Shown here: positions 1 through 62,075 of the stretch, one piece after another
How the letters are laid out: the number at the start of each line of letters is the position of its first letter
Numbering within the stretch: position 1 is the first letter of the stretch
Source of the DNA: Octopus vulgaris
Taxonomy: Eukaryota
Direction of reading: 5' to 3'
DNA: 64,000 nt
Assembly (NCBI GenBank): GCA_951406725.2
Contig: OX597818.1
Location: forward strand, 121,024,001 to 121,088,000
Position numbers and translations under genes: made by a program
Notes under the pieces: generated by a model
The model's database searches: none
Seen by the model: the letters and a program-made list of their open reading frames with translations, nothing else
Told to the model about the DNA's origin: nothing

Positions 1-290
1 TCGCAAAGTGTGTTTCGTAAAAGATGGAAGTCTATAGCAAGTATGTTGCGAGTGAAAGAACCTGTTTAATCGAGAATGTGAAAAAGGAGAAAGCAAAGTC
101 TTCAGTGTGAGTATGTGGTTTGTGGGGTCAACCACGTCCTCCGCTTCATTTTTTGTTATTCACTCATTATCATTTAATTGTATATATTTTAATTATTTGT
201 TTATTCATATGTTTCGTCTCATTCGATACCCTGACCCCAACGTTTGTTTTGTCCCCTCTTTTTCTCAACCTTATGGTGAATAAAGAAATA
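1..290 (+). mobile_element. 3' end of Tx1/L1-like LINE
   Basis: Matches 23810-24099; ends GGTGAATAAAGAAATA followed by (CT)n. Confidence 0.8.
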
Positions 291-1119
291 CTCTCTCTCT
301 TTCTCGGCATCTCTCTCTCTTTCTCAGCGTCTCTATCACTCCCTCTCTCTTTCTCGACATCTCTCTCTCTTTCTCAGCATCTCTCTCCTTTTCTCGGCGT
401 CTCTCTCTCTCTCTCTCTCTCTTTCTGGTAATGTAACTGATTGTTGGATGTCAAATATACGAGTGACAGAGTAAGATGATTAAATATTTTACTGATGACG
501 AATTGGATGCTGTTTACATGATTTATGACAAAATGATTGATGGTAGGATGCCTGATATAGAAGGAGTGATAGATTGTAGGATCGATGAATATTGTTTTAT
601 TGACTATTGATCTGATTATGATTAGGTGATGTAGGTATTACGAATGATGGCAAAGGAACTGATAGAATAGAATGGCGGTATGCATAGATAACAAATGATA
701 AGATCGCCAATAAGATTGATTGGTGAGTGGTCTATTATTTGACGTTTTATCTGTTTAATTGTCAAATATTACATGATCTAATATTTGTTAGTCGACTTTA
801 TATGATGGTTTAATATTTACTAATTAAGTATTTTGTGGGTGAATAGTATCTTGTGGTCTAATAATTACGTCTCAACTCTTTGCTGCTTTAATCTTTAGCC
901 ATCCGTTGACTTACTGTTGATGCTTTTACTATCATTATGAGTATTCTGATTTTAGAATTTGTATACTCTGTCTCTGCAAAAGACGATAACAGGATTGGCG
1001 CAAGGAAGATCATCAAATTAAACACTGTATCATAAAATTAGTAAAAGCATTTGAAAGAGCCTTAGATCACAATACCGAAGTGTATAACATTTATTATGTC
1101 TTAAGTGTATATATTAATT

Positions 1120-1680
1120 GAAATCAAAATCAAATTCCATGACTGGCATCCGTGCTAGCGGGGTGCAAAGAGCACCATACAAGTGTGATCGTTGACAGAG
1201 CAGCTAACCGGCCTCCGTGCCAGTGGCACATAAAAGGCACCATTCGAATATGATCGTTACCAGCGTCGCCTTACTGGAACTTGTGCCCGTGCTAGTAGGG
1301 TGCCAAGAGCACCATCCGAGCGTGATCGTTGCCAGAGCAGCCAACTGGCTTCCGTGCCGGTGGCACATAAAAGGGCACCATTCGAGCGGGATCGTTACCA
1401 ACGTCGCCTCACTGGCACCCGTGCCGGTGGCATGTGTAAAAAGATTCGAGCGAGGTCATTACCAGTACCGCCTGACTGGCCCCCGAGCCGGTGGCACGTA
1501 AAAAGCACCCACTACACTCTCGGAGTGGTTGGTGTTAAGAAGGGCATCCAACTGTAGAAACTCTGCCAGATCAGATTGGAGCCTGGTGCAGCCATCTGGT
1601 TCGCCAGCCCTCAGTCAAAATCGTCCAACCCATGCTAACATTAAAAGCGGACGTTAAACGATGATGATGAGGAGGAGGAT
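1120..1680 (+). mobile_element. Interspersed repeat with internal ~65-bp subrepeats and a (GAT)n retroposon-like tail (copies ~24969-25529, ~48893-49453)
   Basis: Repeated CCGTGCCGGTGGCAC..AAAAG..CACCATTCGAGCG.GATCGTT modules; ends CCAACCCATGCT...GGACGTTAAACGATGATGATGA. Confidence 0.65.
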
Positions 1681-60100: not shown

Positions 60101-61949
60101 TCAACTCGCAAGAAATAACTGCTAAATCAAAGTACAAATTGTTTAAGATATAGGCGCAGGAGTGGCTGTGTGGTAAGTAGCTTGCTTACCAACCACATGG
60201 TCCCAGGTTCAGTCCCACTGCGTGGCATCTTGGGCAAGTGTCTTCTGCTATAGCCCCGGGCTGACCAAAGCCTTGTGAAACTGAAAGAAACTGAAAGAAG
60301 CCTGTCGTATATATGTATATATATATATGTATGTGTGTGTTTGTGTGTCTGTGTTTGTCCCCCTAGCATTGCTTGACAACCGATGCTGGTGTGTTTACGT
60401 CCTCGTCACTTAGCGGTTCGGCAAAAGAGACCAATAGAATAAGTACTGGGCTTACAAAGAATAAGTCTGAGGTCGATTTGCTTGACTAAAGGCGGTGCTC
60501 CAGCATGGCCACAGTCAAATGACTGAAAGAAGTAAAAGAGTAAAAGAGTAAAGAGTATACCAACTACATGACAGAACAATACATAACCTGGTGTCGACAT
60601 ATTTAATGCAAAAAGAATTAAAAGCTAACAAGAAAAGTGTTGAAACTCCTATTTGTTCGCTGTAGTGGTAGCTCTCTTTAGGCAAATTTTATGTTTAGTT
60701 TTTTTAAATTTTATTTATGGCCAATACATAATGTTACATGACATGTCGGGAATTTTGCCAGAGAGGCAGGGCCAATCCATAAAGTTACATTACATATTGG
60801 GGATTTCGCCAGAGGGGCAGGCCCAACCGATAATGTTACATGACATGTCAGCGAATGCACCAGAGGGGCTGGATCAAGCAATCACGTTACATGACATGTT
60901 GGGGATTCACCAGCGGGGCAGACCCTACCTATAACGTTACATGACATGTCGGGCAATTTGCCACGGGGGCAGTGCCAATCCGTACTGTTACATGACATGC
61001 CAATGTTACATGACATGTCAGAGATTTCACCAGGGGAGCAGGCGCATGCCATAACATTACATGACATGTCAAGGGATTTGCCAGAGGGGCAAGCGCAACC
61101 CATAACATTACATGACATGTCTGGATTCACCACAGGAACAGGGCCAATCCGTAATGTTACATGACATTTTGCTGATTTCGCCAAAGGGGCAGGGCCCATA
61201 ATGTTAGATGACATGTTGGGAAATTCGCCAGAGGGGCAGGACCAATTCAAAACTTTAGATGACATGTCGGGGATTTTTCTCAACAATGCCAAGAGTAAAC
61301 GATGTTTTATGTGACACATTCTACCAATATACGAAGTTTGAAAGTGTTTTGTTACAAAAAATTATTTTTTAAATCTGTAGGTCAAAAGGTAAAGATCCGA
61401 AGATTTATCAGTTATTTTTGTTATGTCAAGCAACTACATAGAGGGTTCCTCAGTAGCTCATAATACTCATAATTTTAAAAGCTGGAAATGTATTTTCTCT
61501 TTTATTTGTTTATTATTTACAGCGCTTTCATACTATGGCTGTGCTGGGGTTCTGCCTTCCAAACCTTTACTCATTTGATTCCAATACTCTGTCTGGTACA
61601 TATATTTTTTTTTTTTTACTTATCTGTACATGACTAAGTTTACCTTAGGTATTTTTGTTTGCTTAATTGATTTATTCCTTGCTAATAAGCATGTGCATAT
61701 GCAAGCACACACACACACATACACACACACACACACACACACACACACACACAAATGCATACTGGAAGAGCTTCTGACCCTAGAAAAACCTGTCTCAACA
61801 AAGATTTGTCTGATCCATGTAAGCATGGAATGGTGAATGTTAAAGTGATGATGATGATGATGATGATGATGATGATGATGATGATGACGATGATGATGAT
61901 GATGATGTTGATGATGATGATGATGTTGATGATGGCAAAGGTGCATATA

Positions 61950-62075
61950 TGACAGACTTCCCCGTAGTTTCTTTGAATCAAATCTCCCTCACAAGACTGT
62001 GGTGAGGCCGAAGCTATGGTAAAAGACACTTATCCAAAAACCCAATATGATGTACAGTGAGCTTGAACCCTAAAA
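61950..62075 (-). mobile_element. Degenerate SINE family A spanning the array's right breakpoint
   Basis: GACAGACTTC...CAAATCTCCCTCACAAGACTGTGG...GCTATGGTAAAAGACACTT aligns by eye to the reverse complement of family A. Confidence 0.7.

Follow-up and report, generated by a model that had tools for sequence, protein, structure and literature searches.

Does a run of near-identical receptor genes in an octopus genome represent three working copies, a young duplication that has begun to decay, or an error of assembly? We addressed this question in a stretch of 64,000 nucleotides of Octopus vulgaris DNA (contig OX597818.1; hereafter the window), which the initial annotation had described as a very young gene copy-number expansion. 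Overall, we consider it likely, with a probability of roughly 0.6, that the three head-to-tail ~23.9-kb units carrying octopus GPR156 are a real young tandem duplication whose exon-3 splice donor survives in the rightmost unit alone, so that both extra copies are predicted to be defective.

The array and its junctions

Self-BLAST of the window revealed three head-to-tail units with a period of ~23.9 kb that are 98.8-99.3% identical, and the length and identity of these repeats exclude chance similarity. The diagonals, and the absence of any N from the whole window, bear out the proposed tandem array of at least three units (Table 1). Comparison of 60-base flanks confirmed the proposed boundaries as well: the 60 bases to the left are the same at 14098, 38022 and 61978, those to the right are the same at 14098 and 38022, and identity stops at 61978. 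An interspersed repeat spanning 61978 is intact there and severed at both junctions; therefore, unit C carries the native right end. The unit start falls inside a second, different repeat. We presume these breakpoint repeats to be SINEs, and in the window it is their repetition that is apparent. Within the window, no homology was found between the two junction sides, which match different repeats and not each other. With the repeat cut at the junctions, this suggests that the array began with a non-homologous join. A repeat-mediated NAHR origin would leave homologous repeats at both breakpoints, and none were found in the window, outside which the native left flank lies.

Table 1. Coordinates of the array, its genes and its other elements in the window
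Feature	Position	Strand	Basis or remark
Unit A (partial)	1-14098		Cut by the window start; position 1 corresponds to B 23810
Unit B, complete, 23,924 bp	14099-38022		Self-BLAST, three-way alignment
Unit C (complete; 23,956 bp); the gene's 5′ side is native here	38023-61978		Self-BLAST, alignment, breakpoint repeat
Junction 1	14098-14099		Cut interspersed repeat fused to the interior of an unrelated repeat
Junction 2, same as junction 1	38022-38023		Flank comparison, repeat matches
Block around junction 1	11542-22321		Against 35470-46291: 6 substitutions, 5 in microsatellites
Interspersed repeat, uncut across the array end	61945-62037		66-74% to 14 other matches in the window; marks native right breakpoint
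GPR156 orthologue, copy C, 614 aa, all six donors GT	41466-57138	-	Exon mapping, translation
Copy C exons	57138-57026, 55465-55330, 53836-53729, 52150-52028, 50362-50018, 45350-45195, 42329-41466	-	
GPR156 copy B, exon-3 donor lost	17537-33171	-	Exon mapping
Copy B exons	33171-33059, 31497-31362, 29866-29759, 28223-28101, 26438-26094, 21424-21269, 18400-17537	-	
GPR156 copy A, only exons 1-5 inside the window; exon-3 donor lost	2245-9316	-	Exon mapping
Intact exon-3 donor GT, copy C only	53727-53728	-	Splice-site comparison
Copy B donor: +1 G>C (GT>CT) and a second change 4 nt upstream (R118S codon)	29758-29762	-	Alignment
Copy A donor: both changes of B	5936-5940	-	Alignment
Orphan last coding exon of convergent neighbour, CBM_14 chitin-binding domain, unit B	15129-15302	+	E 2e-10
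Same CBM_14 orphan exon, unit C	39053-39226	+	Exon mapping
Retroelement remnant, zf-RVT	22133-24206	+	E 2e-9

The last coding exon of a convergent neighbour, which had been placed within the units, was found in B and C. These extra CBM_14 exons have intact acceptors and could act as alternative terminal exons on read-through. Each unit also holds the zf-RVT remnant, which contains an older internal ~700-bp duplicate (94%), and degenerate TTAGGG runs in intron 3 (53159-53274, 29189-29304 and 5367-5482). A diverged 51-bp minisatellite (60719-61276, 36751-37199 and 12823-13271; ~75% identity between units) sits within 1.3 kb of the array's right breakpoint, and the junction puts an ATG before a 76-codon frame inside the repeat (14097-14327), probably by chance. 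A phage tblastn gave no match; on unit B, ARAGORN reported 0 genes, and Rfam gave 18 sub-threshold matches, nearly all on microsatellites.

The three-way alignment of A, B and C contains 67 substitution columns and 43 indel segments. The differences that the initial annotation described as scattered SNPs and indels are thus real, but they are clustered, and A and B have lost a splice donor to one of them. A low-complexity filter, which some microsatellite-edge sites still pass, kept 55 of the 67 SNPs: 23 are private to B, 23 to C and 4 to A, and 5 lie where A is unseen. The initial 8.2 kb of the unit contains just 1 of the 51 B-versus-C SNPs (binomial p 1.3e-8), and a single non-microsatellite SNP separates the 10.8-kb blocks that surround the junctions; B and C diverge by 0.33% outside these blocks. 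The near-identity of the blocks and the SNP-poor first 8.2 kb suggest that both junctions were copied from one event. Dates of ~5,000-18,000 generations, computed from the 1 SNP in 10.8 kb and from an 11-kb shared block, each, are not relied on because the rates were assumed and a single SNP is within consensus error.

Unit A is a mosaic of tracts resembling B and tracts resembling C: its 46 sites fall into 10 runs, and as few runs occurred in 1 of 20,000 shuffles, a value inflated by adjacent sites. Polarised with O. sinensis as the outgroup, A groups with C at the derived F139 but with B at the derived donor loss, two sites 1.6 kb apart, an incompatibility that requires at least one exchange. 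Private to A are a 12-bp deletion after 6125 and a 75-bp deletion after 11541, both with 2-3 nt microhomology flanks, and C has two private non-homopolymer indels, a 12-bp difference and a 25-bp duplication. In the ~410 bp at B 29758-30166, 5 positions set C apart from A and B, and the 12-bp deletion and a SNP set A apart from B and C, so more than two sequences, as expected of a true tandem duplication, are present here. A diploid single-copy locus has two alleles; the three distinct sequences in 410 bp and the microhomology-flanked deletions therefore argue against a two-allele assembly artefact.

From these data, we propose a putative history. A non-homologous break-and-join would have linked the repeat interior at 61978 to an unrelated repeat 23.9 kb away, creating two copies; the anatomy of the junction is directly visible, and the repair route is our interpretation. 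Unequal crossing-over may then have duplicated the single junction and produced the third unit, as the near-identity of the blocks suggests. Exchange among units or alleles would subsequently have given rise to the mosaic unit A, in which one switch is documented by the outgroup.

The gene carried by the units

The initial annotation placed all seven coding exons of a GPCR in each unit. This holds for B and C; exons 1-5 of A lie in the window, and its exons 6-7 are presumed. Exon 7 is 100% identical to that of the O. sinensis 'probable GPR156', whose RefSeq isoforms omit precisely exon 4 (X2) or exon 6 (X3), which confirms these exon boundaries. The window gene has S281, as in O. vulgaris records and unlike O. 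sinensis, a residue that points to O. vulgaris as the likely species. No stop or frameshift occurs in any exon seen in A, B or C, and exons 1, 2, 5, 6 and 7 are identical between copies where compared. The exon-6 donor (45195 and 21269) is weak, and O. sinensis X3, without exon 6, loses the segment after TM7.

An in-frame stop lies 9 nt upstream of the ATG, and the O. sinensis 614-aa model begins at the same Met; the stop leaves no upstream ectodomain via this acceptor. The first coding exon opens at a splice acceptor, which places the promoter further right, possibly outside the unit; each unit contains 4.8 kb of upstream DNA, and a CpG scan for the promoter was flat. A three-codon upstream ORF (57142-57156, minus strand) ends 6 nt before the GPR156 start in the same frame, alike in A and B, and may limit GPR156 translation.

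Public O. vulgaris predictions include three consecutive accessions, possibly from the same data and hence not counted as independent. One has an exon-7 frameshift absent from B and C and may represent a further copy, for example the exon 7 of A beyond the window. Public O. vulgaris models of the gene start in the wrong frame in exon 2, skip exons 3-4 and miss most of the 7TM; these short models are likely mis-annotations.

Exon 5 alone matched the class C 7TM domain (PF00003, E 1.8e-8), and matches to PDB entries agreed. Among solved structures, the raw score was best for GABA-B2 (148.6 bits, against 119.6 for human GPR156). Because raw similarity favoured GABA-B2, trees were built from 144 of 166 fetched proteins, after a 7TM coverage filter and the removal of four redundant isoforms. 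In the IQ-TREE analysis of 38 of the 144 sequences, the octopus protein falls in an 18-member GPR156 clade (99.8/100), apart from the GABA-B subunits, that spans mollusc, nemertean, echinoderm, hemichordate, amphioxus and vertebrate sequences. FastTree on all 144 gave a matching 39-member clade (0.858), and the first ESM Atlas match was a GPR156 cluster (0.95). Members of the clade have at most 66 residues ahead of the 7TM match, and the Venus-flytrap ectodomain of GABA-B2 is absent from the octopus protein. By sequence and phylogenetic placement, the octopus gene is orthologous to GPR156, a class C GPCR that has no ligand-binding ectodomain. A GABA-B2 with upstream ectodomain exons was ruled out by the in-frame stop and the tree.

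At the 6.35 ionic-lock position, our alignment has D or E in all 13 non-vertebrate clade members checked (D220 in octopus) and Q in all 5 vertebrate members. The mechanism ascribed to vertebrate GPR156 is constitutive Gi signalling as a homodimer. PMC11621567 names S257 for this position, one residue off from our 6.35, and proposes loss of the lock as one reason for the constitutive activity of human GPR156. Since octopus GPR156 keeps the lock residue, constitutive activity cannot be assumed. Vertebrate GPR156 orients hair cells (PMC8129141); such a role in octopus is speculation.

Loss of the exon-3 donor in two copies

A functional dosage expansion would keep its splice signals in all copies, whereas the exon-3 donor is present in one of three. 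Exon 3 of O. sinensis isoform X2 ends where the donor of copy C lies, and the basic residue and length at the exon-3 end are kept in O. sinensis, O. bimaculoides, Argonauta, a Logan protein and Patella; the donor of C is thus ancestral and the A/B change derived. Because the donor used by the RefSeq orthologue models is lost in A and B, the extra copies are predicted to be defective. A search of short read-derived protein fragments over exons 2-4 matched one of five candidates (an O. bimaculoides model) and found none with the A/B exon-3 end, which is weak evidence. Among the public sequencing runs listed, 20 of 24, from 10 studies, share part of 49900-57400, 8 of them with at least half of its words, and no RNA run is among them; this is word sharing and says nothing on copy number or expression.

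By computation, the donor change common to A and B would lead to a skipped exon, a frameshift or 25 residues inserted into ICL2, the loop that contacts the G protein. On a donor matrix that was generic and not fitted to octopus, cryptic donors score from -6.1 to +2.9, whereas the true donor reaches 5.7. Exon 6 of this gene uses a donor that scores just -1.9 on the same matrix; weak donors are thus in use in this gene, and the outcomes of cryptic splicing remain predictions. For B, the donors at -5, +4 and +96 would give 119-148 aa, the donor at +75 would give 639 aa with 25 extra residues in ICL2, and skipping of exon 3 would leave 578 aa and remove TM3, the helix with K3.50 and R3.53. An open 613-aa product would result from the in-frame donor 3 nt upstream, which scores lowest (-6.1). 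In 140 of 144 homologues, the TM3-TM4 segment measures 25-31 aa, and PMC11621567 reports that K3.50, R3.53 and ICL2 matter for the basal activity and G-protein pocket of human GPR156. Transcription from the native promoter would presumably reach C first and stop there. On these predicted defects, the array likely adds no working receptor.

Alternative readings and known systems

On internal sequence evidence, a real duplication with two or more copies is very probable, and three or more copies in cis are probable. The reverse reading, in which a single-copy locus had its two alleles set in tandem via a chimeric read, would account for divergence at the allele level: the 0.33% between B and C is within the allelic range, as false duplication also predicts, and a heterozygosity of 1.22% is reported for O. 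vulgaris (bioRxiv 10.1101/2023.05.16.540928). According to PMC9516828, heterotype false duplications are frequent and their copies often share a scaffold; the O. sinensis records are isoforms of one locus. However, gaps are a hallmark of false duplication listed in PMC9516828, and no N occurs at the junctions; moreover, three sequences share one 410-bp stretch, and the clean non-homologous join occurs twice. We regard such an artefact as very improbable. A real two-copy duplication, with the third unit and the mosaic of A stitched from homologous chromosomes by the assembler or polisher, is unlikely. It would explain junction blocks near-identical over 10.8 kb as one junction on both homologues, and the few private SNPs and B-like/C-like switching of A; a consensus chimera could also produce the asymmetry in private SNPs (4 in A, 23 each in B and C). 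At the QV39 given for a published octopus benchmark (bioRxiv 10.1101/2023.05.16.540928), one expects 1-2 errors per 10-14 kb, which could account for the single junction-block SNP and for some of those private to A. Nevertheless, the 23 B-private SNPs make B no simple splice of A and C, A retains private deletions, and a real unequal crossover yields the same pattern.

Whether the extra copies are defective can also be questioned, as A and B own the in-frame donor 3 nt upstream. If all copies had a promoter and A and B used this site, near-normal 613-aa receptors would increase dosage, as the undisrupted, largely identical exons, the open product and the upstream DNA of each unit would allow. 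However, this donor is the weakest candidate, the lost or changed residue falls in a conserved basic ICL2 motif, and a frameshifted public O. vulgaris product is on record, which leaves a functional dosage increase improbable. As a long shot, to which we give the least credence, A and B might be transcribed and spliced at the +75 donor to yield a 639-aa ICL2-insertion (or TM3-less) GPR156 that pairs with the intact receptor and damps G-protein output; this would be a copy-number-polymorphic decoy in O. vulgaris and a handle on whether GPR156 orients hair cells in the cephalopod statocyst and lateral line, as in vertebrates.

The preferred reading thus remains a real young tandem duplication with defective extra copies. 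The amplification part of the initial claim is upheld by the three distinct sequences, the non-homologous, gap-free junction and the allele-level divergence; its gene-expansion part is weakened, as two of three copies lack the exon-3 donor and the promoter may sit outside the unit. If real, the array is a tandem duplication caught as decay begins, in which one can still read the single junction, the points of exchange and the inactivating change, and a count of three gene models would overstate the working copies. According to the tree, cephalopods and other invertebrates also possess a GPR156 orthologue, and a lock residue present in invertebrate GPR156 and absent in vertebrates makes the origin of constitutive activity testable. 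A literature search limited mostly to open-access papers found none on GPR156 in octopus or molluscs and no title on this locus.

Like vertebrate GPR156, a class C orphan GPCR described in PMC11621567 and PMC8129141, the octopus protein has the 7tm_3 domain, K3.50 and R3.53, lacks a Venus-flytrap ectodomain and falls in the same clade. It differs in the acidic 6.35, which GABA-B2 has and the five vertebrate sequences checked do not, in an unrelated C-tail and in the triplication of the gene here. With GABA-B2, it shares the K3.50-D6.35 pair and the best raw structure score but not the ligand-binding ectodomain. Like the heterotype false duplications in PMC9516828, the array has adjacent copies at allele-level divergence; unlike them, it has no gap and three sequences. 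The cephalopod GPCR expansions in PMC6408891 likewise arose by local tandem duplication in octopus, but they are described as multi-gene clades with diverged expression and positive selection, whereas here we found a near-identical triplet with two copies predicted to be splice-broken. In addition, the array resembles a young tandem copy-number variant in its head-to-tail units, single repeated junction, allele-level divergence, mosaic units, partial neighbour gene and decaying extra copy. In young tandem segmental duplications and multi-allelic copy-number variants, one junction is amplified by unequal crossing-over. We see no mechanistic difference from such variants, and the cargo gene has one locus on record in O. 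sinensis. We regard the array as a young tandem duplication of an ordinary kind, in which the extra copies are decaying.
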